Below are positions 9,498 to 52,536 of a stretch of 64,000 bases of DNA, piece by piece. Under the pieces are notes generated by a model. That model saw nothing but the letters and a program-made list of their open reading frames with translations. It did no database searches and had not been told where the DNA came from. Position 1 is the stretch's first letter. Every line of letters begins with the position of its first letter. The position numbers and the translations under genes are program-made. Origin of the DNA: a bacterium (GTDB lineage Bacteria; Bacteroidota; Bacteroidia; Bacteroidales; UBA1402); NCBI GenBank assembly GCA_963617485.1, contig CAVEPA010000002.1, positions 21,620-85,619 of the forward strand. Reading direction: 5' to 3'.

Positions 9498-9785
9498 GTG
9501 TAGCGGGCCTACGCGGTTTATAACAGTTGCGTAGCGGGCCTACGTGACTGATGACAAGGCCGAAACCGGCCGAAAAGGCTTCGACTCCATTATGCGGATT
9601 TTTCGAGGCGGTTTCGATTTTGGAAGAAGGAGCGTAGCGGGCCTACGTGACTGATGACAAAGCCGAAACCGACCGAAAAGGCTTCGACTCCATTATGCGG
9701 ATTTTTCGAGGCGGTTTCGATTTTGGAAGAAGGAGCGTAGCGGGCCTACGTGACTGATGACAAAGCCGAAACCGACCGAAAAGGC
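9498..9785. repeat. 103-bp tandem repeat (2.5 copies plus an upstream 19-nt seed) filling the asd/FKBP convergent spacer
   Basis: Unit starts are at 9529, 9632 and 9735 (period 103). Copies 1 and 2 differ at 2 positions. The box tagcgggcctacg occurs 4 times (9501, 9531, 9634, 9737). Each unit carries an imperfect hairpin: cgaaaccg..cgaaaa pairing with ttttcg..cggtttcg. Confidence 0.9.
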
Positions 9786-10321: not shown

Positions 10322-10359
10322 AGTGGTAATTTTGACTGCGAAAATAGTCATTTTTTTTG

Positions 10360-10367
10360 TATGTTTG
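10360..10367 (+). promoter_or_regulatory. Candidate -7 promoter box (TAtgTTTG) for dut
   Basis: TAnnTTTG 18 nt upstream of ATG 10386, preceded by a T8 run; a second match (TAatTTTG) is at 10327-10334. Confidence 0.45.
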
Positions 10368-10385
10368 TAGCCTTTAAAAACTATT

Positions 10386-10823
10386 ATGACTGAGGTAAAA
10401 ATAATCAACCGTTCGAAGCATCCGCTTCCGCAATATGCCACGCCACAGTCGGCCGGCATGGACCTGAGAGCCAACCTGACAGAGCCTGTCACGCTTAAAC
10501 CTTTGGAGAGGAAACTGATTCCCACAGGTTTGTTTATAGAACTGCCCGTCGGGTATGAGGCACAGATACGTCCTCGCAGCGGTCTGGCATTGAAGAAGGG
10601 GATAACCGTCCTGAACACACCGGGCACCATCGATGCAGACTACCGTGGCGAAATAGGCATCATTCTTGTCAACTTGTCCAATCAGGACTTCGTTGTGGAA
10701 GACGGCGAACGCATCTGTCAGATGGTAATTGCCCAGCATGCCCAAGCCTCATGGACCGAAGTCGAAGTTTTGGGCGACACCGAGCGTGGCAGCGGCGGGT
10801 TCGGACACACCGGCGCTTGCTAA
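10386..10823 (+). CDS. dut: dUTP diphosphatase
   Basis: dUTPase motifs [32 protein letters not shown] and [11 protein letters not shown]. Confidence 0.95.
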
Positions 10824-12566: not shown

Positions 12567-13350
12567 CAAACTCATACGTCTTGCCTTGCTGGCCGTGGTA
12601 CTCTGCAACTTGAGTGCCTGCAAAAGTCTGCAACAGGCGGCGGTGCAAAAACGGCAGGCATCGCAGGTACGCGCGTTGCTGGCCAGCAACGCGCGTACCT
12701 GCGACAGCCTCGACGCACGCTGTTCCTTGCTCACCGACGACTGGCGCGTGTCGGGCCAGCTGAGCATCGGTCCGGGTTCCATTTGGCTCAGCGTCCAGCC
12801 GCTACTGGGCATCGAAACCCACCGTTTCCACTGGCACCATGAGTTGTTGCAGTTTCTCGACCGCAGCCAGAAAGCTTATGTTTCCGACAGTCTGAGCCAA
12901 ATAAATCTTCCCTTGGAACAGGGTCTGCCGCTCTTACGCAGCCTGCTTATCAACCAAATATCCCATCCCGATGGCCGGCCCTACGCATTGGAAGAATTGG
13001 ACTACAGTTTTCGCGAAGACGGGTCGTGTCTGTTGTCGTACCGGCTGCAAGAGAATGTTGTGCTGCAATATATCATCGATGAAAAGGGAGATTTTTCCCA
13101 TTTTTATCTTCTTAGGGACGAGGCCCGCCTGCTGGATGTCAGCTATAGTGTTTTCACTCCCTATGGCGAGATATCTTTTCCCGTCAAGATAAGCATCAAG
13201 AGTTCCGCCCTGCCCAAAACAGGGAGTTTGCAACTGAGCTTGAGCAATCTGCGCTTCGACCGTGAGCCCAAGCACAGTTTTCCCATTCCCGGAAATTATA
13301 CCAAAATCGAAGCCAAATATCTGTTGCGTGCATTAATCAATCTGTTGTAA
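12556..13350 (+). CDS. DUF4292/LolB-like lipoprotein (tentative)
   Basis: ATG 12556 gives the lipoprotein signal MWNSKLIRLALLAVVLCNLSAC and overlaps the TPR gene by 11 nt. Its position between the TPR and M23 genes matches an arrangement I recall as conserved in Bacteroidetes. The longer track ORF from 12226 is read-through. Confidence 0.55.
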   Translation: MWNSKLIRLALLAVVLCNLSACKSLQQAAVQKRQASQVRALLASNARTCDSLDARCSLLTDDWRVSGQLSIGPGSIWLSVQPLLGIETHRFHWHHELLQFLDRSQKAYVSDSLSQINLPLEQGLPLLRSLLINQISHPDGRPYALEELDYSFREDGSCLLSYRLQENVVLQYIIDEKGDFSHFYLLRDEARLLDVSYSVFTPYGEISFPVKISIKSSALPKTGSLQLSLSNLRFDREPKHSFPIPGNYTKIEAKYLLRALINLL

Positions 13351-36878: not shown

Positions 36879-37988
36879 CTATCTGCTCCGCTCGATGTTG
36901 TTTCCATCCAGCACTTCGCGAATCTGGGAGATGATGCCCGAGGCTTGCCGTTTTGTTAAGCCCGCATCGGAGGCTACGGCCAGAAAATCGTCTATGTCAG
37001 GACGTTCCTTGCCATTAACAATCGATGCATGGATACCGTTATTTGCATTGCGGCACTCAGTGATGTCGTAGGCGGGCGCTATGCTCCATTTCGATCCGTC
37101 ACAGATGAAGGAGAAATTCTTCGCATGGTCATCGTTGTTACCTATTTCGTAGTTGAAAATCATCCTGCGATACATTTCCTGCGCTTGCGACATATCTTTG
37201 GTCAGATGAGCGGTGAACCTTATCAGTTTCCGATAGTCCATCATCGGGAGACGAATCGATTCTCCAAGCAACGCAGCTGCTGTAGCTACGTGAAGTCTTT
37301 TGCCGTCCAATGTCAGGTCGAATCGTCTAGTACCAAGATATTTTCCGTTGAACAGTTTGCAGTCGGGTATTCTTATGCCGCACATCTTGGCCTTTTGAAG
37401 TATGTCGTACTCGCGCATTCCCATGTCCAGAGGATCGTAATAATGTCTGAATTTGACCAACCACGAGCCGTTTTCGTCCTTCCACAAGCATTTAGGACGA
37501 CATCCTCCGGAATTTCCGCTCATGATGTAGAGGTTTCCGGCACTCGAAAAGTCTTTTTCCGTCAACACAGCCAAGGCATCCTTCTGTATCTGGTCCAAAG
37601 TGGCAGATTCCTGCTTTTCGTCGACAACAACCTGCGGAACATACACCAAAGCCCCCATTCCATTTTCTCCTACCAAAGAAAGCCGCTCTACCGGAGTCAT
37701 CTCTAGGAGTGAAAGTCCATACTTTTGCAGCAACTTATTCAGAAGATAACTACCATATCCATCGGGCATACTATCTTCGAAAATTCCGAAGTTGCCGTAA
37801 AAGCAGTTTGTTTTCGGCACCAAGAGTTCATCGGTTAGGGGCAACTCCAAGGGAGAAATAGAAAATCCTGTTGCCAACCAACGCTGGTTGTACTGGAACA
37901 CGCAACTATGGTTATCAGGAGTCATGGACAGCGTCCCAACTGCCTCGTTGTGATATAATACCGTCAATGATTTTGGCAATCGTATCAT
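36879..37988 (-). CDS. hipA: HipA-family Ser/Thr kinase toxin (type II TA)
   Basis: 369 aa; kinase catalytic loop IGNNDDHAKNFSFI; 4-nt ATGA overlap with the upstream HTH gene. Confidence 0.8.
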   Translation of the reverse strand: MIRLPKSLTVLYHNEAVGTLSMTPDNHSCVFQYNQRWLATGFSISPLELPLTDELLVPKTNCFYGNFGIFEDSMPDGYGSYLLNKLLQKYGLSLLEMTPVERLSLVGENGMGALVYVPQVVVDEKQESATLDQIQKDALAVLTEKDFSSAGNLYIMSGNSGGCRPKCLWKDENGSWLVKFRHYYDPLDMGMREYDILQKAKMCGIRIPDCKLFNGKYLGTRRFDLTLDGKRLHVATAAALLGESIRLPMMDYRKLIRFTAHLTKDMSQAQEMYRRMIFNYEIGNNDDHAKNFSFICDGSKWSIAPAYDITECRNANNGIHASIVNGKERPDIDDFLAVASDAGLTKRQASGIISQIREVLDGNNIERSR

Positions 37989-38302
37989 ATTTTTCTCACT
38001 CCTCGTTTGCGATTGGCGTTCTTTTTAATGGATTCCATTTCTCTGAGCGTACTATATTTGGGCTCGTTGAACATTCTCTCCAACTCTTCGGTATAACCTA
38101 GCGCCATGGCTATTTTCACGAAAGATTCGAGCGAAACCTTCGATGTCAGTTCAAAACGGGCGATGCTTGCCTTAGGCACACCCGTCAACGATTGCAAGTC
38201 TGCTCTGGTCAGACCCTTTTCGAGCCTACGCTTCTTGAGCCGTTCCGACAAGATTTTCATCACCTCTTCTGGTGTGGTCAGCACAAAGTCTGATTCAAAC
38301 AT
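37985..38302 (-). CDS. XRE-family HTH protein (HipB-like antitoxin)
   Basis: HTH region GLTRADLQSLTGVPKASIARFE. ATG 38302 is preferred because a -7 box overlaps the longer track start at 38338. Confidence 0.7.
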   Translation of the reverse strand: MFESDFVLTTPEEVMKILSERLKKRRLEKGLTRADLQSLTGVPKASIARFELTSKVSLESFVKIAMALGYTEELERMFNEPKYSTLREMESIKKNANRKRGVRKI

Positions 38303-38335
38303 AACGACTAAAATTTTATCTCTTATAATCGAAAG

Positions 38336-38343
38336 CAAAGATA
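38336..38343 (-). promoter_or_regulatory. Candidate -7 promoter box (TAtcTTTG) for the hipB-hipA-like operon
   Basis: TAnnTTTG on the minus strand, 33 nt upstream of ATG 38302. Confidence 0.4.
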
Positions 38344-38400
38344 AGAAATAATATTTAAGTCTCTATAAAAAGTAGCGCTGCAAACTTCCGAGTCAGCTCG

Positions 38401-38487
38401 ATGTTGGAAAAGTTGCAGAAAAACCACTATTTCATGTTGGAAAAGTTGCAGAAACATGCTATTTTTGCAATGAAAAAGTTGCAAATA
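38401..38487 (+). repeat. Direct repeats (iterons): 2 perfect 21-nt copies and 1 degenerate copy
   Basis: atgttggaaaagttgcagaaa occurs at 38401-38421 and 38434-38454 (33-nt phasing). A degenerate copy aatgaaaaagttgcaaata is at 38469-38487. The repeats bracket the ATPase -7 box. Confidence 0.85.
38460..38467 (+). promoter_or_regulatory. Candidate -7 promoter box (TAttTTTG) for the AAA ATPase gene
   Basis: TAnnTTTG 21 nt upstream of ATG 38489. Confidence 0.4.
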
Positions 38488-38488
38488 T

Positions 38489-39850
38489 ATGCTTAAACGA
38501 CAGATAGACAACGTAATAGAGTCGCATTTTGCCTCCCATCAAAAAGCCTTGTTGCTTACAGGCGCAAGGCAAGTAGGAAAAACCTATGCCATAAGGGAAT
38601 ATGCACGACGGCATAGCCTTAACCTCGTCGAGTTAAACTTTCTTCTTCAGCCGGAAGCCATCTCCATCATTAAGGGCGCAGGCGATACGAAAGATTTGTT
38701 GCTTAGAATCTCCGCCTCCACCAGCACCAAGCTTGAGCCAGGCAAAACGCTGATTTTCTTTGATGAAATACAAGAATACGCCGATGTTATGACTTGGGTA
38801 AAAGGACTTGTTGACGAGGGCAGTTACAGCTACGCCCTCAGCGGATCTCTTCTCGGCATTGAAATGAGGAATATCCGTTCCTTGCCTGTCGGCTATATGT
38901 CCGAATATCAGGTTTTCCCGCTGGATTTCGAAGAATTTGTCCTAGCCGTCGGCCTGTCCGAAAATGTTATTGACTCCTTGCGAAAAGCTTGGGAAAACAA
39001 ATCTCCCGTGGACGACTTCATCCACCGGAAAATGATGCAACTCTTCCATCTATATTTGGTTATCGGCGGAATGCCTGCCGCGGTTCAAGCTTATGTGGAC
39101 ACCAACAATCTCCAAAACGTTGTCAAAGAACAGCGCGATATTCTCAACTTATACAAACTGGACATCTCCCGTTACGACAAGGATGAGCGCAAGAAGCTAT
39201 ATATCAACGAGGTTTTCGATATCATTCCATCCGAACTCAACGCCAAGAACAAACGTTTCATATTGAAACGCCTCAACGAACACATGAGTTTCAGCCGTCA
39301 CGAAAACGACTTTATCTGGCTTAAGGATGCCGATATGGCTCTGCCTACTTACAATGTTGAAGAACCGGTCTACCCACTGAAACTAAACGAACAAAGAAAT
39401 CTTTTCAAACTGTTCCAAAACGATGTCGGACTGCTGACGTGCCAATATTCTTCGGGAAAGATTCAACTGAAGATTCTCAATGGAGAGGTGGATATCAACT
39501 TTGGAGCGGTATTTGAAAACGCCATCGCCCAAGAGTTCCATGCACATGGTTGGGACCTTTACTATTTCAACAGCAAGAAACAGGGAGAAATAGATTTTCT
39601 GCTGGAAACAGACAATGGAATCATTCCCGTCGAAGTGAAATCCGGAAAAGAATACCAGCGACACAATGCCTTAAACAATCTTATGTCAAACCCAGATTAC
39701 GGTTTCGCCAAAGCCTATGTTCTATGCAATGGAAATCTCCATACAGAGGGCAATATCGAATATCTGCCCGTGTATATGACAATGTTCATCCGCAAATACC
39801 AAGACCTCGGCAATCTGATTTACAAGCTAGATCTTTCTGGATTGGAATAG
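38489..39850 (+). CDS. AAA-family ATPase with a DUF4143-type C-terminal domain
   Basis: Walker A LLTGARQVGKT and Walker B LIFFDEIQE. The C-terminal GEIDFLLETDNGIIPVEVKSGKEY is the nuclease-fold-like signature of DUF4143 ATPases. Confidence 0.8.
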   Translation: MLKRQIDNVIESHFASHQKALLLTGARQVGKTYAIREYARRHSLNLVELNFLLQPEAISIIKGAGDTKDLLLRISASTSTKLEPGKTLIFFDEIQEYADVMTWVKGLVDEGSYSYALSGSLLGIEMRNIRSLPVGYMSEYQVFPLDFEEFVLAVGLSENVIDSLRKAWENKSPVDDFIHRKMMQLFHLYLVIGGMPAAVQAYVDTNNLQNVVKEQRDILNLYKLDISRYDKDERKKLYINEVFDIIPSELNAKNKRFILKRLNEHMSFSRHENDFIWLKDADMALPTYNVEEPVYPLKLNEQRNLFKLFQNDVGLLTCQYSSGKIQLKILNGEVDINFGAVFENAIAQEFHAHGWDLYYFNSKKQGEIDFLLETDNGIIPVEVKSGKEYQRHNALNNLMSNPDYGFAKAYVLCNGNLHTEGNIEYLPVYMTMFIRKYQDLGNLIYKLDLSGLE

Positions 39851-39923: not shown

Positions 39924-39953
39924 GTGGCAGCGACTCGTAAGAGTCGCTGCCAC
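39924..39953. terminator. Strong hairpin between convergent genes, likely a bidirectional terminator
   Basis: Perfect 13-bp stem gtggcagcgactc / gagtcgctgccac with a GTAA loop. On the minus strand it is followed by tatttata. Confidence 0.6.
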
Positions 39954-40009: not shown

Positions 40010-42748
40010 TCATTTCGATGCAATTTTCGAAACAGTGTAGGTGGTTCCGTTCTGGATTACCTCATAGCCGTCGGCGACAAGACTCTTCGTGCATCCGTTT
40101 TGGGCAGGGTTAAAGCCTTCGAATGCGCCGCCATATACATTGATGTATCCGCGTTCATAAGTGCAACTGTTCAAGGGATCATAGTAGCCGTCAACAGAAG
40201 AATAATCATACAAGCAATAATTTGCATATAACTCTTCCAGTTCTTGTGTCTTGTTGGTCAAAATTGCAGCATTGAACGAACCGCCATAAATATTGACAAC
40301 ACCACCGCCGCGCGCCCAGCAAGCGCCAGGGCCATCAGGATCGGAATTAGAACAAGTGAAGACCAGTCCATCGATATTGACAGTACCTCCCCAAGCCATA
40401 ACACAGCATCCGCCATTTAGGGACTTCATTGTAGCATTTTTGATGTAGGAGACACCGCCTGATGCGTAAATGCAGGAATTAGCTCCCTCCATATATACAT
40501 CGTCTACAGTAAGTTTGCCGGAATAGACGTTAAGAAGAGCATTGCCGTCGCCCGTCGTGTTGTTGGCAACGATTTTACCGTTGCCGGTAACAATCAAATC
40601 TCCATTGATTATGGAAATTGCGCGGCACCCGGTACCATCGATGGTCTTGCCGTTAAGGTCAAGAGTAGCAGCATGGCCGCTGTCCAGGGTAACGGTACTT
40701 TTAATACGAATGTCTTCGTTGAGAATGACCTTATTGACTTCAGCATTCGCGAAGGCCTCTTTTAAAGCCGCCTCAGAGGCAACATAAGAAATAACACCGT
40801 CGGCACTTAATACATTGGCCAGCGAGATGCCTTCAACAATAAGAGTACCGTTGGTGTTATCTACAGTGTAAGCGTTGCTGGCGCTTTGGATTTTGCCATT
40901 GCCGCTTCCGTCCTTCAAGGTGAGGCTGGCACCACTTTCGATGGTGATAACATTGCCGCTCTCAGTGCTGAGGGTCTGGCCGTTCAGATCGATGATGGTA
41001 TTCGTTCCACTGGCAATGTTGAAGTTACCGGTGATGCCTGCTGCCAATTTTACTTCGCGGCCGTTTTCGAGTGCATATTCAAGGGTCTTGATATCTTTAA
41101 CCTTGATGAAGGCTTCCAGTTCTTCGCCGCTTTCGCTGGTGGCGGTTTCAGATTCGATTTTAACAACTTCATTGGCCTTCTCGCCGATAATGGCATCTTC
41201 GGCCAGCGAGGCACCGTTCTGCAGCTCGATAACGGGTGCTTTATATTCAACGGTTGTAGTCCCCGTGGTTTCGGGAGCTTTCACTACAATCGAGGAAACC
41301 TTGGCTTGCTCTTTCACCTGTCCTTCATCGCTGGCGGTAGCCTTAACGATGATGGGAGCAGAAGAAGTGGTGGTCATAGAAGTGGTGATGTTGGCTGTGG
41401 GAGCCAAAACGATTTTGGCCTCTGCAGGCACGGTTTCCTTCACTTCCACCTCGGCTACTTCACAAGCGATTTCAACACCACCCTTGGCCACCTCGAGTTT
41501 CCCGGTGATTATGGTGGAGTTGCTCAATACCAGCGTACTATTGTTGGTCTGGGAAGAGACGGTTTCGAAGGTTCCGCCCTCGATATCAACGTGGCTGTTT
41601 TCCAGATTGACAACAAGATTCGAGATGTTGTAGCTACCGGCATTGATGGTTACATTGGCGGGATAGTTTTGGGAAGTTGCGGCATTCTCGTTGTATGCTA
41701 TCGTGATAACGTTCTCACCCTTGCAGTCGCCTTCGATATTCAACAATATATCGTCCTTGGTGTCGGGCAGATTGTAGGTGCCTAAGTAGCCTGCGGGAAT
41801 GGAGAGGCGGTCAACATTGATTGTTTCTGTAAAAGCGGGATCCACAACAATGTTGAAGTCGGCCTGGCTGGTGTAGAGCTTACCGATAATATTGGTGCGG
41901 TAGTTGCCCTGCAAAGGAACGTTGGGCAACGAGATGGTGTTGATGGCTGCGTTGCTGGCATCGTAGATGGTCAGCTTGGCTTCGGTCATGGCCTTAGCAG
42001 CCTTGCCCACCAGCACGTAGTTCATTGATACGTAGCCGTACTCGGTGTTGTTAACCTTGAGTTTTTCGCTCAGAAGCTCGGCGGCCGTGAATGCGGCATC
42101 AACCTCGCCGCTTACCTCGCCAGTGGCCAAATTCAGCGTGTTGGCAAGCTTGGTAAGGGTCAGCGAAGACTTGGAAACGGTTACGCCAAGGGCCGTTGCA
42201 GCTTCAACATCTGCCTTATCAACGCCGAAGTTCAACTGGGCAAAGGGACGATTCAGCGTGACAGGTTCCTTAAGCGAACCCGTGATTGTCTTGTTGGCTA
42301 CATAGGCGTAGAAGGCGTCGCGGCTCTCGTCGTTGGTGGCCGTGGTGTAGTTGTTCACCGTTACGCTCTTGGCGGCAGTATTGAAGGTATAAGGAGAAGT
42401 GAATCCTGCTGCCGGAGCCTTGTAAGCCCAGAATGCGAAACTGTAGGTCTGGCCTGTCACTAGGCGCACCTGGTAGTCGAACGCACCCAATGCATTCCTG
42501 CTGATGGTTTCGTTAGTGACAAGTACGCCAGCGTCATTGTAGACACAGCAGTCCACTTTGTCTACGGTAGTACCATCGGCCACGGTTTTGTCGCCGGCGG
42601 CACGCGTCTGCAAACCGGGCGTGGCTATCGCGAAACTCACGATGGCTTCTTCGCCGTCAACCGGGGGTGTTTCAATCATTTCGTTGGTGCAGGATGCTGC
42701 AAACGCTACTAAAGCTATCGCAGCCAGCGATTTGAAAATCTTTTTCAT
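40010..42748 (-). CDS. Type V pilin-like (fimbrillin/Mfa-like) lipoprotein fused to a ~600-aa beta-helix-like adhesin extension (paralog A, 912 aa)
   Basis: Lipobox signal MKKIFKSLAAIALVAFAASC; ATPGLQTRA candidate maturation site; DAFYAYV...RPFAQLNFGV and NVPLQGNYRTNIIGKLYT pilin-like motifs. These are followed by G/N/T-rich repeats (LNGKTIDGTG..., GNGKIVANN...). Confidence 0.55.
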   Translation of the reverse strand: MKKIFKSLAAIALVAFAASCTNEMIETPPVDGEEAIVSFAIATPGLQTRAAGDKTVADGTTVDKVDCCVYNDAGVLVTNETISRNALGAFDYQVRLVTGQTYSFAFWAYKAPAAGFTSPYTFNTAAKSVTVNNYTTATNDESRDAFYAYVANKTITGSLKEPVTLNRPFAQLNFGVDKADVEAATALGVTVSKSSLTLTKLANTLNLATGEVSGEVDAAFTAAELLSEKLKVNNTEYGYVSMNYVLVGKAAKAMTEAKLTIYDASNAAINTISLPNVPLQGNYRTNIIGKLYTSQADFNIVVDPAFTETINVDRLSIPAGYLGTYNLPDTKDDILLNIEGDCKGENVITIAYNENAATSQNYPANVTINAGSYNISNLVVNLENSHVDIEGGTFETVSSQTNNSTLVLSNSTIITGKLEVAKGGVEIACEVAEVEVKETVPAEAKIVLAPTANITTSMTTTSSAPIIVKATASDEGQVKEQAKVSSIVVKAPETTGTTTVEYKAPVIELQNGASLAEDAIIGEKANEVVKIESETATSESGEELEAFIKVKDIKTLEYALENGREVKLAAGITGNFNIASGTNTIIDLNGQTLSTESGNVITIESGASLTLKDGSGNGKIQSASNAYTVDNTNGTLIVEGISLANVLSADGVISYVASEAALKEAFANAEVNKVILNEDIRIKSTVTLDSGHAATLDLNGKTIDGTGCRAISIINGDLIVTGNGKIVANNTTGDGNALLNVYSGKLTVDDVYMEGANSCIYASGGVSYIKNATMKSLNGGCCVMAWGGTVNIDGLVFTCSNSDPDGPGACWARGGGVVNIYGGSFNAAILTNKTQELEELYANYCLYDYSSVDGYYDPLNSCTYERGYINVYGGAFEGFNPAQNGCTKSLVADGYEVIQNGTTYTVSKIASK
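40806..42373. repeat. Copy 1 of a 1,568-bp direct repeat (inside paralog A)
   Basis: Same sequence as 45725-47292 (offset 4,919 nt). Four pairs of six-frame track ORFs are letter-identical, and every sequence line I compared by eye matched. Confidence 0.9.
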
Positions 42749-42805
42749 AATGGAATTCTCTTATACTACTATTAGGATACTGTGATGGTTCGAAAGGATG
42801 CCGAT

Positions 42806-42859
42806 GTTTTCTTGTCATGGCAAAGTCAAATTGACTTGACTTTGCTCATGACAGAAAAC
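42806..42859 (-). other. 54-nt near-perfect hairpin in the spacer between pilin paralogs B and A
   Basis: Arms gttttcttgtcatggcaaagtcaa (42806-42829) and ttgactttgctcatgacagaaaac (42836-42859) give 23 bp with two 1-nt bulges and a 6-nt loop. There is no T tail on either strand. Confidence 0.8.
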
Positions 42860-42875
42860 ATTTCCAAAGTAGGGC

Positions 42876-43829
42876 CTAGTTTGTAGTAGGATAATCCACA
42901 TTGTCATCCTCCCCTGCGAAAGCAGGAGCCACTTCAACACTGTAGTCGGTCTGGCTGGTGAAGAGATCGCCAAGCACGTTGGTGCGGTAGTTGCCCTGCA
43001 AGGGAACGTTGGGAACATCAATGGTGTTGATTTCCTCATTGTTCTCTTTGTAAAGCGTCAGCTTGGCATCGGCCGTGGCCTTAGCAGCCTTGCCTACCAG
43101 CACGTAGTTCATCGATACGTAGCCGTAGCCAGTTTCGTTAACCGTGAGGTCTTCGTTCAGAAGCGCTGCAGCGGAGAACGTGGCTTCAGCTTCGCCGCTT
43201 ACTGTACCGTCAACCAGGTTGAGCGTAGTGCCAAGATTCTGAATCGTCAGCGCAGACTTGGAAACGGTTATGCCAAGATTCTCGGCGACGGTGATATCAT
43301 CCTTGTTCACACCAAAGTTCAGCTGGGCGAAGGGACGGTGCAGCTTAACTTCCCGATTCAGGGAACCCGTAATCTGCACAGGCTCTACATAGGCGTAGAA
43401 AGCATCGCGGCTCTCGTCGTTGGAAACGGCGTTAGCGTAAGAAACGGTAACGGTCTTGTCAGTAGCACTGAAGGTGTAAGGAGAGGTGGCTCCTTCTGCC
43501 GGAGCCTTGTAAGCCCAGAAGATAAAGCTGTAGGTTTGACCCGTCATCAGGCGCACCTGGAAATTGGTCGAGCCGTTGGTCATATCGATGGTTTTGCTGA
43601 CAGTTTCGTTGGAGATAAGTGCCCCTTCTGAATCGTAAACACAGCATGCCACTTTGTCTACGGTTTTACCATCGGCCACGGCACGGGTCATCAGGCCCGG
43701 AGTGGCTATGCTGAAGTTAACAACGGACTCTCCCTCGTTCACGATAGGGGTTTCAATCATTTCTTTGGAACAAGATGCTGCGAAAACCATTAAGGCAATG
43801 GCAGCGATGGATTTCATAATCTTTTTCAT
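42876..43829 (-). CDS. Type V pilin-like (fimbrillin/Mfa-like) lipoprotein, pilin module only (paralog B, 317 aa)
   Basis: Signal MKKIMKSIAAIALMVFAASC, ATPGLMTRA, DAFYAYV...RPFAQLNFGV, NVPLQGNYRTNVLGDLFT. It is colinear with the N-terminal ~310 aa of A and C. Confidence 0.55.
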   Translation of the reverse strand: MKKIMKSIAAIALMVFAASCSKEMIETPIVNEGESVVNFSIATPGLMTRAVADGKTVDKVACCVYDSEGALISNETVSKTIDMTNGSTNFQVRLMTGQTYSFIFWAYKAPAEGATSPYTFSATDKTVTVSYANAVSNDESRDAFYAYVEPVQITGSLNREVKLHRPFAQLNFGVNKDDITVAENLGITVSKSALTIQNLGTTLNLVDGTVSGEAEATFSAAALLNEDLTVNETGYGYVSMNYVLVGKAAKATADAKLTLYKENNEEINTIDVPNVPLQGNYRTNVLGDLFTSQTDYSVEVAPAFAGEDDNVDYPTTN

Positions 43830-43875
43830 AATGTAATGGGTTTTAATTGGTTATACTTTGTTTATCGGTTTATTC

Positions 43876-46800
43876 TTAGTAGTTGATGGTAGCAGTGCCG
43901 GTGTTGCCAGTCTCGGTGCCGGTCCAACTGTTATAGCGTCCGATGTAGTTCCTGGCATTGAAACTTGCGTTGTCCGTGAGGTTCTTGTAGTTACGGGTCT
44001 TATCGACCGTAATGGTCACTCCGGCAATAGAACAATCCTTAACGGAATCATACTGCGCCGCAATGCCGACAATACCGCCCATATCTCTATAGCCCTTGAT
44101 GCTGACATTCTTCACTGAGCAGCCTGAAATCACATAACCAGGAGCATTTGATTCACCCCAATGACCAAGAATACCACCAACCTTATCGCCTTCGTCGTAT
44201 TCTTTACCATTAGCCAACGGAGCTGTTACAGCAATCAGTTCAGCTTTCTCTACCGCGCAATTTGATATTGAGCAATAGCCCTGGCCGCTGATGCCGCCAA
44301 CATAGTGCGTACTGCGAACCTTGGCATTGTAAACCTTGATGCCTTCAGCCTTTGAAGTGTGAAGATTGCCGACTGCAACGCCACAAGCGCTACCACTGCA
44401 AATGCTTACTTCAGAAGCAATATCGGCATTTTCTACCGTGAAATTCTTCAAAGAGCCGTTAAGGACGCGGCCAAACAGACCCAAATAGGCTTTCTGCTCT
44501 GCGGAATGAACATACAGATTGGAGATGGTATAACCCTTGCCGTCGAAGGTGCCTTGGAAAGATTTGGCATCTTCACCATACAGTCCAATGGGAGCCCAGT
44601 TGAGATTGCAAAGATTGATGTCAGCATTAAGGTAAACAGTCTTGCCCTTGAAAGTGGTAATGCCTTCATTTACCTCCTTGGCAATCCACGCCAGTTCGGA
44701 AGCTTTGGTAATGAGGTAGTTGCCGTTGGCATCGGTAGTGGGTTCGGAAACCGAGCCGTCCCAATCGTATTTATACTGGTTGGCCGACGCATCCAAGAAG
44801 GTACCGCTGTAGATAAATCTGGGGTTGTTCTGCGAATAAATGGCACCATTGAAAACACCACCGGTAACAGTGAGCTTAATCTGGTCGCGTGCAACATCGT
44901 TCTGAACGTCTTTCTCCCAAATAGCATATACGCCGTTGAAAGTACCGCCCGAGATGGTTACATTTATCGGCAAATTGGTGTTGTGCTGCGAAATACCAAT
45001 GGCTGCACCATCTGTGGTAGTTCCACTTCCGTTAGGCTGCACGGTAAAAGGATTGGCTGTGGAGGTAAATTCACCGCTGGAGATATTCATGATACCCGCA
45101 CGGATTTCTATGGCAGTCATTCTGCCCACCACCTTGCTGTTCTTGATATTCCAAACAGCATAGCCTGCAGCGTAGATTCCCACACCTCTTGAATCGAAAT
45201 CGGCACCGTCAAGGTTGAATATCGGGGCATTGGCACCCGTCTGCTGATTAGACCCGTTGATGTAGACACCGTATACATCTTTAATAAAATTCTCATCGTG
45301 AACATACTTGGCGGAGCAGTTTACTACAAGGCCGTAGTTGTTATAAGTTCCATTGTCGTCTTTGGCTACAAAGATACCAGCCCAGCCTTTCAAGGTGATG
45401 CCGTTACCGATAGTAACAACTGTATAATTGGCTACATTCTCGGTGCCACTGCCTCTAAGCATAAGACCGTGGCCATCATCAACGCTTTCCGCTATGATAC
45501 CGGTACCGATGAAATCAACGGTAGCATTGTATATATCAAACGGTGTGTCATTTTTCGTAATTGTTTTGCCGTTCATGTCAATCACTACCTTGCGACCGCC
45601 ATTGATAACCGCCGTTTTTGTAAGGTCGATATCAGCACTAATCACAATCTTGCCGATGTTGGTGTCGGCGATAGCGGCGTTGAGAGCCTTTTCGTCGGCA
45701 ACATAAGAGCGTACACCGTCGGCGCTTAATACATTGGCCAGCGAGATGCCTTCAACAATAAGAGTACCGTTGGTGTTATCTACAGTGTAAGCGTTGCTGG
45801 CGCTTTGGATTTTGCCATTGCCGCTTCCGTCCTTCAAGGTGAGGCTGGCACCACTTTCGATGGTGATAACATTGCCGCTCTCAGTGCTGAGGGTCTGGCC
45901 GTTCAGATCGATGATGGTATTCGTTCCACTGGCAATGTTGAAGTTACCGGTGATGCCTGCTGCCAATTTTACTTCGCGGCCGTTTTCGAGTGCATATTCA
46001 AGGGTCTTGATATCTTTAACCTTGATGAAGGCTTCCAGTTCTTCGCCGCTTTCGCTGGTGGCGGTTTCAGATTCGATTTTAACAACTTCATTGGCCTTCT
46101 CGCCGATAATGGCATCTTCGGCCAGCGAGGCACCGTTCTGCAGCTCGATAACGGGTGCTTTATATTCAACGGTTGTAGTCCCCGTGGTTTCGGGAGCTTT
46201 CACTACAATCGAGGAAACCTTGGCTTGCTCTTTCACCTGTCCTTCATCGCTGGCGGTAGCCTTAACGATGATGGGAGCAGAAGAAGTGGTGGTCATAGAA
46301 GTGGTGATGTTGGCTGTGGGAGCCAAAACGATTTTGGCCTCTGCAGGCACGGTTTCCTTCACTTCCACCTCGGCTACTTCACAAGCGATTTCAACACCAC
46401 CCTTGGCCACCTCGAGTTTCCCGGTGATTATGGTGGAGTTGCTCAATACCAGCGTACTATTGTTGGTCTGGGAAGAGACGGTTTCGAAGGTTCCGCCCTC
46501 GATATCAACGTGGCTGTTTTCCAGATTGACAACAAGATTCGAGATGTTGTAGCTACCGGCATTGATGGTTACATTGGCGGGATAGTTTTGGGAAGTTGCG
46601 GCATTCTCGTTGTATGCTATCGTGATAACGTTCTCACCCTTGCAGTCGCCTTCGATATTCAACAATATATCGTCCTTGGTGTCGGGCAGATTGTAGGTGC
46701 CTAAGTAGCCTGCGGGAATGGAGAGGCGGTCAACATTGATTGTTTCTGTAAAAGCGGGATCCACAACAATGTTGAAGTCGGCCTGGCTGGTGTAGAGCTT

Positions 46801-47646
46801 ACCGATAATATTGGTGCGGTAGTTGCCCTGCAAAGGAACGTTGGGCAACGAGATGGTGTTGATGGCTGCGTTGCTGGCATCGTAGATGGTCAGCTTGGCT
46901 TCGGTCATGGCCTTAGCAGCCTTGCCCACCAGCACGTAGTTCATTGATACGTAGCCGTACTCGGTGTTGTTAACCTTGAGTTTTTCGCTCAGAAGCTCGG
47001 CGGCCGTGAATGCGGCATCAACCTCGCCGCTTACCTCGCCAGTGGCCAAATTCAGCGTGTTGGCAAGCTTGGTAAGGGTCAGCGAAGACTTGGAAACGGT
47101 TACGCCAAGGGCCGTTGCAGCTTCAACATCTGCCTTATCAACGCCGAAGTTCAACTGGGCAAAGGGACGATTCAGCGTGACAGGTTCCTTAAGCGAACCC
47201 GTGATTGTCTTGTTGGCTACATAGGCGTAGAAGGCGTCGCGGCTCTCGTCGTTGGTGGCCGTGGTGTAGTTGTTCACCGTTACGCTCTTGGCAGCCGAGT
47301 CGAGTTCGTAATGATTGCCGTCCTTATCGTAGGCCCAGAAAACAAAACTGTAGGTCTGGCCCGTTACCAGGCGCAGCGAGATGTCGGCCTTGCCGCCGCT
47401 CATGTCGGATGTTTTGCCAACACCCTCGATAAGATTGCCGTCCTTGTCGTAGACATGGCATTGCACCTTGTCTACGGTGTTTCCGTCGGCCACGGCTCGG
47501 GTCATCAGGCCCGGAGTGGCAACCGAGAAGTTCACAACGGCTTCTTCGCCGTCGTAAGATGCGGGATTTTCCAACAGCTCGTTGGTGCAGGATGCTGCAA
47601 ACGCTACTAAAGCTATCGCAGCCAGTGATTTGAAAATCTTTTTCAT
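43876..47646 (-). CDS. Type V pilin-like lipoprotein fused to a ~940-aa beta-helix plus GLUG-like adhesin extension (paralog C, 1256 aa)
   Basis: It has the same signal peptide and pilin motifs as A and shares a 522-aa block with A. The unique C-terminus carries FQGTFDGKGYTISNLYV...YLGLFGRV...VGGISGQG...VGGILGHW...MGGIVGIA, a GLUG-type repeat pattern. Confidence 0.55.
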   Translation of the reverse strand: MKKIFKSLAAIALVAFAASCTNELLENPASYDGEEAVVNFSVATPGLMTRAVADGNTVDKVQCHVYDKDGNLIEGVGKTSDMSGGKADISLRLVTGQTYSFVFWAYDKDGNHYELDSAAKSVTVNNYTTATNDESRDAFYAYVANKTITGSLKEPVTLNRPFAQLNFGVDKADVEAATALGVTVSKSSLTLTKLANTLNLATGEVSGEVDAAFTAAELLSEKLKVNNTEYGYVSMNYVLVGKAAKAMTEAKLTIYDASNAAINTISLPNVPLQGNYRTNIIGKLYTSQADFNIVVDPAFTETINVDRLSIPAGYLGTYNLPDTKDDILLNIEGDCKGENVITIAYNENAATSQNYPANVTINAGSYNISNLVVNLENSHVDIEGGTFETVSSQTNNSTLVLSNSTIITGKLEVAKGGVEIACEVAEVEVKETVPAEAKIVLAPTANITTSMTTTSSAPIIVKATASDEGQVKEQAKVSSIVVKAPETTGTTTVEYKAPVIELQNGASLAEDAIIGEKANEVVKIESETATSESGEELEAFIKVKDIKTLEYALENGREVKLAAGITGNFNIASGTNTIIDLNGQTLSTESGNVITIESGASLTLKDGSGNGKIQSASNAYTVDNTNGTLIVEGISLANVLSADGVRSYVADEKALNAAIADTNIGKIVISADIDLTKTAVINGGRKVVIDMNGKTITKNDTPFDIYNATVDFIGTGIIAESVDDGHGLMLRGSGTENVANYTVVTIGNGITLKGWAGIFVAKDDNGTYNNYGLVVNCSAKYVHDENFIKDVYGVYINGSNQQTGANAPIFNLDGADFDSRGVGIYAAGYAVWNIKNSKVVGRMTAIEIRAGIMNISSGEFTSTANPFTVQPNGSGTTTDGAAIGISQHNTNLPINVTISGGTFNGVYAIWEKDVQNDVARDQIKLTVTGGVFNGAIYSQNNPRFIYSGTFLDASANQYKYDWDGSVSEPTTDANGNYLITKASELAWIAKEVNEGITTFKGKTVYLNADINLCNLNWAPIGLYGEDAKSFQGTFDGKGYTISNLYVHSAEQKAYLGLFGRVLNGSLKNFTVENADIASEVSICSGSACGVAVGNLHTSKAEGIKVYNAKVRSTHYVGGISGQGYCSISNCAVEKAELIAVTAPLANGKEYDEGDKVGGILGHWGESNAPGYVISGCSVKNVSIKGYRDMGGIVGIAAQYDSVKDCSIAGVTITVDKTRNYKNLTDNASFNARNYIGRYNSWTGTETGNTGTATINY
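45725..47292. repeat. Copy 2 of the 1,568-bp direct repeat (inside paralog C)
   Basis: See the 40806-42373 entry. Boundaries were set where the two genes first differ: ggcAcTTAAT vs ggcGcTTAAT at one end, and cttggcG vs cttggcA at the other. Confidence 0.9.
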
Positions 47647-47670: not shown

Positions 47671-48888
47671 TTATAAGTTGATATTGTATTCGCCGTTGAA
47701 TTCTGCGTTGACACCAATGCTGCCTCCCGTACTGAGGGTGAGAAAATCGCCACGCACTGTCGTTATTCTGCTCCTGACAATCGGCACTGTTATGGAGGGT
47801 GTGAGCGAGAGCAGATTGTTGGTTTTCTTGTCGTAAAGGGCCACCTGCACAATGACGCTCGATTCGTGGCCGTTCACCATCACATAGTCGAAGCCCATCA
47901 GCACCTCGTCCATCGAAATCGGGCTGAACTCTGAGTCGAACTGCACGCCGGCGCGTGAATCGATGGGCTTGTTCTTGAACATATCGAACATAAAGGGCAT
48001 AAACGAGGTGTAATAAAAGCGGATGTAGTAGTCGGATGGGTTGAAGCCGGGAGCTTTAGCCGGATTCCAGACATTCGACACATCGCTGCCGGGCAAGAGC
48101 TCGGCCGGTGTTTCTACCGTTACCTTCGTCTCGCCTTCTTTAACCTTATTCATAGCTTCCTTTTCGAGTTTTCTTGCGTTTATCCAGCGGGAATATTCCT
48201 CACTCGAGAGTTTTTCCTTCAATACCTTCATCATCAGACATTCAAGGTCGGTGGCGATAAAGCGGAACTTGGCGAGCGGACGTTCCATATCCAGCGTTAC
48301 CGCGATGGGTTCTTGCTTGCTGCCCACCCGCTGAAGGGACACCTCTGCCGAACCCAAGAATGCGTCTTTATAGTCGGTGTTGGCCGAATGCAGCTCGGGC
48401 AAGGCGATGGCGGCAAAATCGCCGGTTTCATAGTAAAGGTCGTCTGTACTGCCTTTGGCTACATAATCGGCCCAACAGCGTATCTGCCAATCGCCTTCGG
48501 GCAATACCGCCAGCGTGCTGTAATCGAGCGTTGAGAGGTCGTCTTTGGTCAATACCAACGTATAGTCGGGGGCTTCGTTGCGCGAGAAGCTGCCATCGGG
48601 AAGGCGAGGATAGAATTTCACCGTATATCTGAAGGCATGCTCTTTATCGGCCTTGGTTGTCGATTCTGAGGATATATCCGTCTTGGTTTCGTAGTTTACC
48701 GTCAGGTAGGGTGGCAAGTCGGTAGAGAATACGAAATCAAGTTTCAGCACCGCAGGGGTGGACTCGTCGGGCCATTGATGAACGCTGCAGGAAAAAGCGC
48801 CAATAACCACTAACACGCAACCAAGGACCGGCAGCGCTCCCGTAAACGCGACCAGACGAGTCCATATTTTTAATATCATCCGCTTCAT
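47671..48888 (-). CDS. FimB/Mfa2-like type V pilus subunit (anchor/terminator-like), lipoprotein
   Basis: Signal with Cys (...VIGAFSC), DAFLGSAEV...RPLAKFRF core, and C-terminal VPIVRSRITTVRGDFLT resembling the pilin-module end motif. It has a 4-nt overlap with the upstream gene. Confidence 0.45.
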   Translation of the reverse strand: MKRMILKIWTRLVAFTGALPVLGCVLVVIGAFSCSVHQWPDESTPAVLKLDFVFSTDLPPYLTVNYETKTDISSESTTKADKEHAFRYTVKFYPRLPDGSFSRNEAPDYTLVLTKDDLSTLDYSTLAVLPEGDWQIRCWADYVAKGSTDDLYYETGDFAAIALPELHSANTDYKDAFLGSAEVSLQRVGSKQEPIAVTLDMERPLAKFRFIATDLECLMMKVLKEKLSSEEYSRWINARKLEKEAMNKVKEGETKVTVETPAELLPGSDVSNVWNPAKAPGFNPSDYYIRFYYTSFMPFMFDMFKNKPIDSRAGVQFDSEFSPISMDEVLMGFDYVMVNGHESSVIVQVALYDKKTNNLLSLTPSITVPIVRSRITTVRGDFLTLSTGGSIGVNAEFNGEYNINL

Positions 48889-50153
48889 TTCCGAGTCCTC
48901 CTTCCCAAACTGAATTCATAGAAGAAACCTATCGCGAGGTTGTCGAGTCCCATGTAGACTTCTTTTTGCGTATCTACATAAGGGCCGTTCTCCTCGTTCA
49001 CGAAGCGATCGTATTCGAAGTTGTAGGCACCGGCACCGATGACAAATTCCACGCCCAGGCGCGGATAGTCGGGAAAATGGAGCTTGTAGCCCAGGCTCAG
49101 GCCACCGCCAAGCATCGGAGTCTCGCCGGCATGGTCTTGGATGCGGTAATTGCCGTTGGCTGCCAAATTGAAGTAGCATATACTGCCGTGTACTCCTACA
49201 AACAGTCCCTGGGGCCAGGCGAAATTCCACCTAAGCTCGGGCTGCAAGGTTAAAGTCCTGAATTTTATGGTGCTGCTGAAATAGTCGAATGCGCTGAAAT
49301 AGACCGGGACATGCAAGGAGAGCCTGCGCGAGAAGTCAATCTCTACACCAGCGTTCGCAATCAAAATGCCCCAAAGCAAGGCATTGGTTTTGGGAGTCAG
49401 CTTGGGTCGCCAAGCCTCGGGCCAGTTGGCGGCCGGTTCGGTGCGGCGGCCGGCAGCTTCCAAGATATCGGCAGTGGACTGCTTCACGGAGGGCTCCACC
49501 AGAGCTTGCACGTCAAGTTCCGACTTCAGGGAATCCGTTTCATTCACGCTGACAATGGCCTTGAAAGTACGCATGCCCGGGAAAACCTTTTTGGCAAGAG
49601 TATTCCATATCTGGCCGCCGTTCAAGGTTTTGAGCGCATGGAGTTTTTGCTTGTCATTATAAACGGAATCGTTGAGGATGGACATGATGGCCGCCTTTTC
49701 CTGAGCATCGATGGCCATCGACTTTTCTACCATCTCAGGAAGACCGGTCATAGGCGCAATACTGACGAAAGCCGACCCCAGATTCGATATATTAAAATAG
49801 ACAGCATCGAGCCCTGCTGCCGCCAAAGCCTCAATAGCATGCTGAAGTCTTTCGGCACGAAGCTTTTCATTGAACGAAACCGAGCCTTCGGGACATGCCG
49901 ATGCGCTGAAGTAAACTTTCACCTTACCAGCCGTCAGGGTGTCGGCCAAGTGGTTGGCCTGCTCGACAAAACGGGCCACTGTTTCTCCATTGGAATGGTA
50001 AGCTGGCTCATATTTCGATGACCCGAAACGATAATGAATATCTATCGAAGAGCTCGATTGTGCATAAGTCTCGATTCCATACCATCCAACGCACAATATG
50101 CCTATTATCAGCAATGTGCGTAATATGCAAAAGGATGTTCGCGGTTTAGGCAT
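48885..50153 (-). CDS. Outer-membrane protein, DUF3868-like N-terminal half plus DUF3575-like beta-barrel C-terminal half (tentative)
   Basis: ATG 50153 gives a signal peptide (...GIETYAQ); the track start at 50204 is a TTG. The C-terminal half has alternating hydrophobic strands (LLWGILIANAGVEIDFS...LSLHVPVYFSAFDYF...LGYKLHF...IGFFYEFSL). Confidence 0.45.
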   Translation of the reverse strand: MPKPRTSFCILRTLLIIGILCVGWYGIETYAQSSSSIDIHYRFGSSKYEPAYHSNGETVARFVEQANHLADTLTAGKVKVYFSASACPEGSVSFNEKLRAERLQHAIEALAAAGLDAVYFNISNLGSAFVSIAPMTGLPEMVEKSMAIDAQEKAAIMSILNDSVYNDKQKLHALKTLNGGQIWNTLAKKVFPGMRTFKAIVSVNETDSLKSELDVQALVEPSVKQSTADILEAAGRRTEPAANWPEAWRPKLTPKTNALLWGILIANAGVEIDFSRRLSLHVPVYFSAFDYFSSTIKFRTLTLQPELRWNFAWPQGLFVGVHGSICYFNLAANGNYRIQDHAGETPMLGGGLSLGYKLHFPDYPRLGVEFVIGAGAYNFEYDRFVNEENGPYVDTQKEVYMGLDNLAIGFFYEFSLGRRTRK

Positions 50154-50344
50154 AGTGGTTCTCGGTTTAACAATTTGCTTGTTGTGGTAATATTGGGTTC
50201 GCAAATTTCATAACAGGGAGTTACAATTTACCGCAAGTTTTTACTAATAACCTGTTACAAAAGCGTATCATAACCTTAACAATGAGCAGACCAAAAGCCG
50301 TTGAAGAATCAGGGGGAATTATTTCAAAACAGCTTGTAAATATG

Positions 50345-50352
50345 TACCTTTG
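50345..50352 (+). promoter_or_regulatory. Candidate -7 promoter box (TAccTTTG) for the OmpA-family gene
   Basis: TAnnTTTG 21 nt upstream of ATG 50374. Confidence 0.45.
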
Positions 50353-50373
50353 CGGCTTGAAAAAAAGGGCTTT

Positions 50374-50997
50374 ATGCGCAAGCTTGGTCTTCTTATCGCT
50401 ACAGGGTTCGTGTTGCTTGCTTCCTCTTTCGACACGGACGACATTCTGCACCATACGGCAGCCGAATATATCGTGCTTTCGAGTGTGGGCGGCGAAGGAG
50501 CATCGGCACTGGACCAGGCCGTCGGACAAGCTGTGAAAGAGCAGATGAAGCCCTTGGAAACCGCCCTGCGCGAGCTATGGCAAGATATCGCCACCATCCG
50601 TCAACCAGACGAAGGCGTGCTGATGGTCATCCCCGGCGATTTCCTTTTCAAAAGCGGACGCAGCGAACTTAGAGATGCAAGTCTGCCCTATTTGCAGGCA
50701 ACGAAGGAATTGTTGGCGCAATATCCGCAATTCCGCACCTATATACTGGTGCATACCGACGACAATGGTTCGGATTTCATGTCGATGGATTTGTCGGAGC
50801 ATCGGGCGAAGGTCTTGAAAAAGTGTCTGCAGCAAGACACTTCGGTAAAGATTTCCGGCAAGGGCAAAGGCGCACTGGTGCCGGTTATCTCCAACGCTTC
50901 GGACGCTGGCCGGCAGCTGAACCGCCGCGTGGAATTTGCCATTGTGGCCAAAGGAAAGCTGATTAGAGATTTGAAACGGCAAATCAAACAACAATAA
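50374..50997 (+). CDS. OmpA/MotB C-terminal-domain protein
   Basis: ATG 50374 gives the signal MRKLGLLIATGFVLLASSF. OmpA_C pattern FKSGRSELRD...ILVHTDDNGS...NRRVEFAIV. Confidence 0.75.
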   Translation: MRKLGLLIATGFVLLASSFDTDDILHHTAAEYIVLSSVGGEGASALDQAVGQAVKEQMKPLETALRELWQDIATIRQPDEGVLMVIPGDFLFKSGRSELRDASLPYLQATKELLAQYPQFRTYILVHTDDNGSDFMSMDLSEHRAKVLKKCLQQDTSVKISGKGKGALVPVISNASDAGRQLNRRVEFAIVAKGKLIRDLKRQIKQQ

Positions 50998-51012
50998 TAA
51001 AATACAAGCACT

Positions 51013-52536
51013 ATGAACAAGAAAGCCATGCTGATGATTCTCGACGGTTGGGGCATCGGCAAACACGGAAAAGCAGATGTTATCTACAACACGCCCACTC
51101 CTTATTGGGACAGTCTTTTGGCTCAGTATCCTCACTCGCAATTGCAGGCTTCGGGCGAAAACGTAGGTCTGCCCGACGGACAGATGGGCAACTCTGAAGT
51201 AGGCCACCTGAACATCGGCGCCGGCCGCGTGGTTTATCAGGATTTGGTCAAAATTAACATTGCCTGCCGCGACAACAGCATTTTGGAGAATCCGCAGATA
51301 AAGTCGGCCTACAGCTACGCCAAAGAAACGGGCAAGCAGATTCATTTCCTCGGTTTGGTTTCCAACGGCGGTGTGCACAGCTCGCTCGACCATCTGTTCA
51401 AACTTACCGAGATTTCCAAACTTTACGGCATTGAAAAGTCTTACGTTCACTGCTTTATGGACGGCCGCGACACCGACCCGCATAGCGGCGTGGGCTTTAT
51501 CGAGGATTTGGAGAAACATCTGGCCGTGAACGGCGGTGCCATCGCTTCCATTGTGGGACGCTACTACGCCATGGACCGCGACAAACGCTGGGAACGCATC
51601 AAAGAGGCTTACGACCTGCTCGTGAACGGCGTGGGCAAGGCTTCGACCGATATGGTACAGGCTGTGAAGGAATCGTACAACGAGGGTGTTACCGACGAGT
51701 TCATCAAGCCAATCTGCCATGTTGATGCCCAAGGCAAGCCTATTGCCACCATTCAGGAGGGCGACGTGGTTATCTTTATCAACTTCCGCAACGACCGCGC
51801 CAAGGAACTTACCATCGTCCTGACCCAACAGGATATGCCCCAGGCCGGTATGCACACCATTCCCTTGCAGTATTATTGCATGACACCTTATGATGCCACT
51901 TTCAAGGGTCTGCACATTCTTTTCGACAAAGACAACGTATCGAACACGTTGGGCGAAATTGTCGCTGCCAACGGCCTGCGCCAGCTGCGTATAGCCGAAA
52001 CGGAGAAATATGCCCACGTTACTTTCTTCTTCTCGGGCGGCCGTGAAAAGGAATTCGAGAATGAAGACCGCATCCTGATTCCTTCGCCCAAGGTTGCCAC
52101 CTACGACCTGAAACCCGAAATGAGTGTCTACGAAGTGGGCGATGCCTTGAAGCAGGCCATCGAAACCCAAAAATACGACTTCATCGCCGTGAACTATGCC
52201 AATGGCGATATGGTGGGCCACACGGGCGTTTACGAAGCCATCGAAAAGGCCGTCATCGCTGTGGATGCCAACGTGAAGAAAGTGGTGGAAGCTGCCAAGG
52301 CCAACGGCTACGAAGTGATTATCATCGCCGACCACGGCAATGCCGACAACGCCATCAACTCAGACGGTACGCCCAACACGGCCCACTCGCTCAATCCGGT
52401 GCCCTTCGTTTACGTTACCGACAACAAGAACGCCAAGGTGGAAGACGGTATACTGGCCGATGTCGCTCCTTCTATCTGCCACATTCTCGGCATTGCCCAG
52501 CCGGCCGAAATGACGGGTCATTGCCTTATCAAATAA
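51013..52536 (+). CDS. gpmI: 2,3-bisphosphoglycerate-independent phosphoglycerate mutase
   Basis: MILDGWGIG, catalytic-Ser region [23 protein letters not shown]; 507 aa. Confidence 0.95.

Follow-up and report, generated by a model that had tools for sequence, protein, structure and literature searches.

How two neighbouring genes of one operon come to be identical over 1,568 nucleotides (nt) and diverged on either side is the question raised by the locus described here. The locus lies in a 64,000-nt stretch (hereafter the window) of contig CAVEPA010000002.1 (GenBank assembly GCA_963617485.1, positions 21,620 to 85,619 of the forward strand) and belongs to an uncultured gut bacterium of the Bacteroidales (lineage UBA1402). 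It is a chromosomal type V (FimA/Mfa-class) pilus operon, in which two genes for predicted adhesins, A and C, share the identical block and a third paralogue, B, lies between the two copies. The explanation that we hold with good confidence is RecA-type gene conversion between these tandem tip-adhesin paralogues, combined with exchange of A alleles between strains.

The block was delimited by exact pairwise comparison. An earlier sequence-only reading had claimed that 40806-42373 (gene A) and 45725-47292 (gene C) are identical in direct orientation at a constant offset of 4,919 nt. The alignment bore this out, as none of the 1,568 positions differed. The exact run ends at these coordinates and could not be extended by one base on either side. 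Both copies are direct repeats on the minus strand, and the N-terminal side of the genes is at high coordinates. Identity at the 4,919-nt offset was then computed in 100-nt bins. It was 1.00 across the block, 0.31-0.55 in the two bins adjoining it and 0.17-0.37 (chance level) in bins starting at least 600 nt away. On the 3' side the adjoining bins gave 0.37 and 0.55, and weak homology goes on there. Chance is no issue for identity of this kind. Self-BLAST of the whole 64-kb window detected no other long repeat; its remaining hits were the weaker similarity of the third paralogue and, near 9.6 kb, a tandem repeat of 103 bp that is unrelated.

Genes A (40010..42748) and C (43876..47646), both on the minus strand, encode lipoproteins of 912 and 1,256 amino acids (aa), respectively. 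In each, a pilin module is followed by a stalk and then by a parallel beta-helix head, which is shorter and Cys-rich in A and large in C. The block corresponds to residues 126-647 of A and 119-640 of C. Its length of 522 aa had been given correctly in the sequence-only reading; the stalk portion had been put at about 370 aa and is in fact about 334 aa of beta-rich sequence. The 188 aa or so that precede it belong to the pilin module, and the block takes in 60% of the pilin fold, counted from its C-terminal end, together with all of the proximal stalk. That the flanks are diverged on both sides also held, with two amendments. At the N-terminal side, the first 69 nt of A (42680..42748) and of C (47578..47646), which encode the signal peptides, differ by one mismatch and form a second, short repeat in the alignments. 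At the other side, the heads had been called entirely different. The 129 aligned codons that follow the block are diverged homologues (36% aa identity), and the heads are unrelated past them.

Divergence between A and C was estimated by the Nei-Gojobori method inside and outside the block. Synonymous divergence (dS) was about 1.0 in codons 24-125, on the 5' side of the block (54% aa identity), 0 in the block, and saturated in the 129 aligned codons after it. With flanks so diverged and a dS of 0 in the block, A and C are old paralogues that carry a recent identity tract. A sharp-bordered tract of identity in diverged paralogues, with a collapse of dS, is a criterion of gene conversion, and it is what the two genes display. 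The proposal of a recent conversion rather than an old duplication is supported by these values and by three comparisons between assemblies given below.

The course of events that we propose is as follows. In two old paralogues, an internal tract of 1,568 nt would have been homogenised by non-reciprocal homologous recombination, carried out by the general machinery of the host, presumably of RecA type. Repeated short-tract exchange within the tract and import of A alleles between strains would have followed. As a by-product, the direct repeats could mediate deletion or duplication of the 4.9-kb unit. The geometry of the 4.9-kb deletion predicted by the sequence-only reading is correct, and the event itself remains a prediction. 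Variation without a dedicated recombinase, also predicted there, fits the window, where no recombinase, transposase or reverse transcriptase was found among 40 open reading frame (ORF) products scanned against Pfam; for about eight other large ORFs, most of them at 26.6-36.8 kb and 51-57.4 kb, the counterpart in a related locus was the only basis for a name. Recombinase-free variation is, besides, what any direct repeat implies.

The locus was compared across assemblies of the species. The A and C proteins of the source genome are present in the protein database, together with versions from close relatives. The whole locus was recovered in a second complete assembly, L003 (GCA_963620385.1, 124.7-kb contig), with the same exact 1,568-nt repeat and the same boundaries. 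L003 and the window differ at 72 sites in 23.6 kb, of which 38 are the same 19 block sites counted in two copies; one patch among them has 17 changes in 33 nt. The 3.35-kb spacer between the copies has a single differing site. Each genome thus carries the same variants in its two copies at 19 sites, which supports conversion, and assembly collapse could give the same pattern. A sister strain, L001 (GCA_963656495.1, 8.2-kb contig), starts inside the block of C and is about 100% identical to the window through the head of C, through B and through the first 176 codons of A. Past codon 176 its A is a mosaic, with 70-100% identity per 100-nt bin, in the block as well as in the head. In this strain, so close to the window nearby, A and C are yet only 92.4% identical over the 3' 705 nt of the block (the part covered, 3' 45% of the block). 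The A gene of a third assembly, L004 (GCA_963604475.1), differs from the window block at a few patches, has two patches in common with L001 and is a mosaic of window-like and L001-like segments.

Changes in these genes are not scattered. They occur in dense patches amid identical DNA (13 changes in 24 nt, for example, besides the patch of L003), which argues for recombination and not for point mutation. C is about 99-100% identical across L001, L003 and seven further assemblies (L015-L021) where comparable, and A varies in L001 and L004. One copy changes and its partner stays constant, as non-reciprocal transfer requires. C looks like the donor and A like the recipient, since C is constant across strains where comparable and A differs between near-identical strains. 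Part of the variation of A would come from imported alleles, because the head of A is also patchy between strains and C cannot be the donor there. Both boundaries of the block are shared by the window and L003; the 5' boundary on the A side is also present in L015-L016 and the 3' boundary on the C side in L016-L021. The founding event would therefore be older than the sampled strains, given that its outer boundaries are common to several assemblies. In L004, a tract of about 25 nt at 2860-2890 (about 42650-42680 of the window; codons 24-32, 'ELLENPASY') is C-like in otherwise A-type sequence. It reads as a second, independent short conversion tract copied from C.

The seven further assemblies (five metagenome-assembled genomes, MAGs, and two Logan assemblies) were found by look-up with protein B, which is identical in 10 assemblies. 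Their contigs consist of the spacer alone (3.0-3.6 kb) with a short overhang into the repeats. The overhang into the A copy of the block is 55 nt in L015 and 69 nt in L016. Both Logan contigs begin at 45754, exactly 30 nt into the block, and the far end of one of them likewise lies exactly 30 nt within the exact run of the signal-peptide repeat. Logan contigs are built with k=31, and 30 nt is then k-1 bases inside the repeats. Contig ends of the fragmentary assemblies map to window positions 45751-45900, 42305-42319 and 42681-42729. In all, nine of the 11 assemblies break inside the locus: the repeat boundaries account for seven of these breaks, that of L001 falls within the block and that of L004 just past it. 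Such contig ends are what a genuine repeat leaves in a graph of reads. They point to all four junctions in many independent samples, and the duplication is not an artefact of one assembly. The seven contigs that end at the repeat boundaries add support to the conversion reading. Outside the species, scans of genome and metagenome contigs with the block protein gave only distant relatives (L005-L013, 39-57% identical), and no comparable long near-identical repeat was found in those fetched. The closest named relatives fetched were a chicken-gut Bacteroidales MAG and Candidatus Cryptobacteroides.

Several points weigh against conversion as the full account. The head patches that separate the A genes of L001 and the window reflect import of strain alleles and not intragenomic conversion for part of the variation of A. 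Donors of the L001-specific patches were not found; gene B was tried as one and rejected, as it agrees with A of L001 at only 28 of the 62 differing sites. Both L001 and L004 are fragmentary MAGs that could be strain chimeras. No deletion or hybrid product was present in the two protein clusters at 90% identity to which one would belong, in a setting where short-read contigs cannot span the block. Finally, in a de Bruijn graph, direct copies on either side of a unique spacer make a simple loop. An assembler that threads this loop writes one edge twice and would erase small real differences, which could fake both the 100% identity and the 19 shared differences of L003.

This last point leads to the rival that survives best, which we regard as possible though rather unlikely. 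The repeat would be real, and its perfect identity and the strain variants shared by the two copies would be produced by collapse of the graph, the true copies differing by a few single-nucleotide polymorphisms or a patch. Most assemblies break exactly at the repeat, so that short-read graphs cannot separate the copies. Moreover, the block has the same limits in the window and L003, and the only variants between them are 'homozygous' across copies, which is the outcome expected of bubble-popping followed by loop traversal. Against this, collapse requires copies that are already very similar, and copies as diverged as the flanks, or at 92% identity as in L001, assemble separately. The contig ends of nine independent assemblies (L001, L004, L015-L021) are also consistent with four distinct junctions. 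The exact 100% identity could be slightly overstated by collapse. Collapse cannot create the tract itself, as copies as different as those of L001 were assembled apart, and for this reason the core finding of a sharply bounded, near-identical tract stands.

An improbable alternative is that the identity came mainly from import of a ready-made allele from another strain, or from a recent in-frame partial duplication, and not from conversion within the lineage. Allelic exchange at A does occur, as indicated by the patchiness of its head between L001 and the window and by the mosaic A of L004, and the same route is described in Porphyromonas gingivalis (PMC5266723). However, an A allele whose block is identical to that of the resident C still requires copying from C to A somewhere. 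Nor can one imported segment explain a spacer with 1 differing site beside 19 in both copies when the window and L003 are compared.

A broader version of the conversion reading, which we think quite improbable, is a built-in recombination device of type V pili. Tandem tip genes, kept identical over the stalk and over the pilin core that docks to the shaft, would undergo frequent conversion of short and long tracts as well as deletion and duplication between the direct repeats, and stalk patches and heads would be reassorted within clonal populations. This would amount to a pilE/pilS-like strategy in gut Bacteroidales, operating without a dedicated recombinase, and the patch mosaics are compatible with it. 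Programmed adhesin variation of the pilE/pilS or shufflon type, with the block as a dedicated substrate for swapping heads at high frequency, is most improbable: it would suit the dense patch mosaicism between strains that are about 100% identical in the head of C, in B and in the start of A, the shuffling of stalk and head modules across the family and the strong hairpin between B and A, but A and C are complete genes with a start codon, a signal peptide and no frame disruption, hence not silent cassettes, the repeats are direct and not inverted, the Pfam scan of 40 ORF products revealed neither recombinase nor reverse transcriptase, and the protein clusters held no hybrid or deletion product. 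The 'cassette exchange' of the sequence-only reading, if taken in the programmed sense, was therefore not supported.

Individual known systems were also looked for and rejected. For an invertible promoter or shufflon, where inverted repeats around the switched segment and a tyrosine or serine recombinase close by are expected, the region upstream of the operon (49700-51200) has no inverted repeats, the block repeats are direct and the 40 scanned products include no recombinase. For silent cassettes of the pilE/pilS type, all three of A, B and C are complete ORFs with a start codon and a signal peptide. No G-quadruplex motif, as at Neisseria pilE, was present at 39-51 kb. For the target of a diversity-generating retroelement, where template and variable repeats would differ at adenines, no reverse transcriptase domain was found among the scanned products and the repeat pair is 100% identical over 1.6 kb.

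To return to the proposed gene conversion between A and C, its partners sit in an operon of five genes, all on the minus strand, that runs from about 50.2 kb down to 40.0 kb in the order DUF3575, D, C, B, A. The first gene (48885..50204) encodes a DUF3575 outer-membrane protein (Pfam PF12099, E 2.3e-25). Its mechanical ORF is 439 aa from a TTG codon; the gene call in L003 is 364 aa, which would place the start near 49979. Gene D (47671..48888) encodes a 405-aa lipoprotein, a type V pilin-like subunit that has no similarity to A, B or C by BLAST at E 1e-3. Gene B (42876..43829), in the spacer between the block copies, had been described as only moderately similar to A and C. This is correct (61-63% aa identity to each by BLASTP), with the amendment that B is a pilin-only paralogue of 317 aa.

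Membership of a common family was assessed with Pfam. All four lipoproteins score above the 25-bit cutoff of PF20200 (DUF6562): A with 46.3 bits (E 5.1e-12), B with 44.6 bits (E 1.6e-11), C with 47.5 bits (E 2.2e-12) and D with 233 bits (E 7.2e-69). Protein B also matches PF08842 (Mfa2) with 27.2 bits for a cutoff of 21.2. As read from the sequence, the signal peptide is MKKI...A(F)AASC in A, B and C and ends in ...IGAFSC in D, each with the Cys of a lipobox. Just after the block, A and C both match Pectate_lyase_5 below threshold, and the head of C has a Glug match below threshold.

Structures were predicted and compared with Foldseek. In the AlphaFold model of A (predicted local distance difference test, pLDDT, 81), the first 310 residues or so match the Bacteroides pilins 3up6, 3gf8 and 3r4r, Mfa2 (5nfi), FimA (6jzk) and Mfa4 (5dhm), with E values of 6.5e-8 to 1e-3 and target template-modelling (TM) scores of 0.4-0.57. 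On this model, protein A is predicted to carry the two-domain beta-sandwich fold of type V pilins. In type V pilins, cleavage at an Arg or Lys behind the first strand removes that strand and so opens the groove for strand exchange. A conserved 'TR' (R49 in A), which may mark such a site, is placed in a low-confidence loop (44-59) directly after the strand 34-42. The 616-aa C-terminal part of C was modelled (pLDDT 83) as a right-handed beta-helix with a GLUG-like end. It matches 3n6z, a putative IgA1 protease and GLUG protein of Bacteroides (E 1e-4). Further hits were to the L. reuteri SRRP adhesin in its binding region (5nxk), to PL6 lyases and to phage tailspikes. A sequence search of the PDB gave nothing useful (best E 0.5). 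The architecture of pilin module, stalk and head proposed in the sequence-only reading is supported by the Pfam matches and by these structural comparisons.

When type V pili assemble, the C-terminus stays free in the tip subunit alone, and a long C-terminal extension is tolerated only there. Because both proteins have such an extension, A and C are best read as alternative pilus-tip adhesins, and B and/or D may serve as the shaft or the anchor. The two predicted tips would have the same shaft-docking surface and stalk and different beta-helix heads. This arrangement may benefit the cell.

The family is modular across species. In protein P0007 the pilin leads straight into a distal head of C type. 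Protein P0006 is of A type at its N-terminus and in its head, with additional stalk, and in P0058 a C-type head is followed by a terminal module of A type; P0003 is also among the homologues with a modular make-up. Stalk and head modules have been reassorted between species, and modular exchange is a general habit of these proteins.

Transcription signals of the operon were examined. A GC-rich hairpin with a 13-bp perfect stem, followed by a T-rich run, lies downstream of A (39924..39953, minus strand) and is the likely terminator of the operon. The 127-nt spacer between B and A folds with a minimum free energy of -37.6 kcal/mol (z -6.6) and contains a strong hairpin with arms of about 24 bp and no T-run after it (42805..42860, minus strand). 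This hairpin may be an attenuator or a site of transcript processing before gene A. No minus-strand TAnnTTTG motif, which would indicate internal promoters, was found in the D-C, C-B and B-A spacers. A sigma-70 scan performed no better than on shuffled sequence. The TAnnTTTG motif (the Bacteroidetes -7 promoter element) occurs 51 times in the whole window, with 32.6 occurrences expected from shuffles, an excess that fits a Bacteroidota genome. At gathering thresholds, the window gave no match to a known RNA family.

Between rimP-nusA and the pilus operon (36879-39850) lie a HipA/helix-turn-helix (HipB-like) toxin-antitoxin pair and an AAA_14/DUF4143 ATPase. This is the part of the window with the lowest GC content (0.44-0.47, against about 0.51). 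The related species L002 lacks both hipBA and pilin B and has the ATPase between its C-like and A-like genes; the neighbourhood has thus been rearranged between species. The rest of the window is housekeeping in nature, with suf genes, infB, nusA, rimP, iPGM and ABC transporters; the suf, infB, rimP, iPGM and solute-binding-protein ORFs were named only from counterparts in related loci. The tandem repeat near 9.6 kb (9529-9785) has a 103-bp unit in about 2.5 copies (98.7% identical) and is intergenic, with the gene for aspartate-semialdehyde dehydrogenase (8489-9493) on one side and that for an FKBP isomerase (9794-10630) on the other. A small palindrome, GCGTAGCGGGCCTACG, opens each unit. A perfect 44-nt palindrome was found at 12661-12704, just downstream of a TPR protein gene (10842-12566) and inside a mechanically extended DUF4292 ORF. 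This palindrome probably acts as a terminator hairpin, and the true start of DUF4292 probably lies further downstream.

RecA-dependent concerted evolution of duplicated genes is known from tufA/tufB in Salmonella and from opa and pilE/pilS in Neisseria. As in these systems, a sharp-bordered identity tract is found here in diverged paralogues, and copies within a genome would be closer to each other than orthologues are between strains, a pattern that assembly collapse could also give. Here, however, silent cassettes and a dedicated sequence element are both lacking, and the partners are adjacent, in direct orientation and probably co-transcribed. A closer case in the Bacteroidales is that of the P. 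gingivalis genes hagA, rgpA and kgp, in which identical repeats within and between genes, domain rearrangement and gene conversion have been described (PMC5266723). There too, long identical tracts occur in distinct surface-adhesin genes and break automated assemblies, and they are ascribed to homologous recombination or gene conversion that yields surface diversity (PMC5266723). The genes hagA, rgpA and kgp are dispersed and encode cargo of the type IX secretion system (gingipains, haemagglutinins), whereas the genes studied here are type V pilin fusions placed in tandem within one operon; what they share is the pilin core and stalk, and the heads stay different.

The proteins resemble those of known type V pili (FimA/Mfa1, with tip or accessory subunits Mfa3-5 and FimC-E) in their lipoprotein precursor, their two-domain fold and an operon that includes pilin-like lipoproteins. 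They differ in the adhesive part, a long beta-helix stalk and head of the DUF6562 family, for which assembly into a pilus is predicted. In Bacteroides, type V tip adhesins are diversified by diversity-generating retroelements (bioRxiv 10.1101/2024.11.15.621889). In both cases diversification acts on an adhesive domain that follows a pilin module at the C-terminal end of the protein. Unlike those tips, the genes described here vary through homologous recombination between paralogues, with no reverse transcriptase among the products scanned. Our literature search found no paper that pairs type V pili with gene conversion and none that mentions DUF6562.

Bacteria are well known to preserve and diversify their surface proteins by gene conversion between tandem paralogues. 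The case described here is concerted evolution of this ordinary kind, among surface-protein paralogues in tandem, and involves no new mechanism. Its interest lies in being a clean, well-bounded example inside a type V pilus operon, in a family for which no literature was found, and in the architecture that it gives for the predicted tip adhesins of DUF6562. For metagenomics, the contig breaks mean that the A and C adhesin genes are systematically truncated or missing in MAG catalogues. Gene A is a strain-variable surface gene of this bacterium and could serve as a strain marker.

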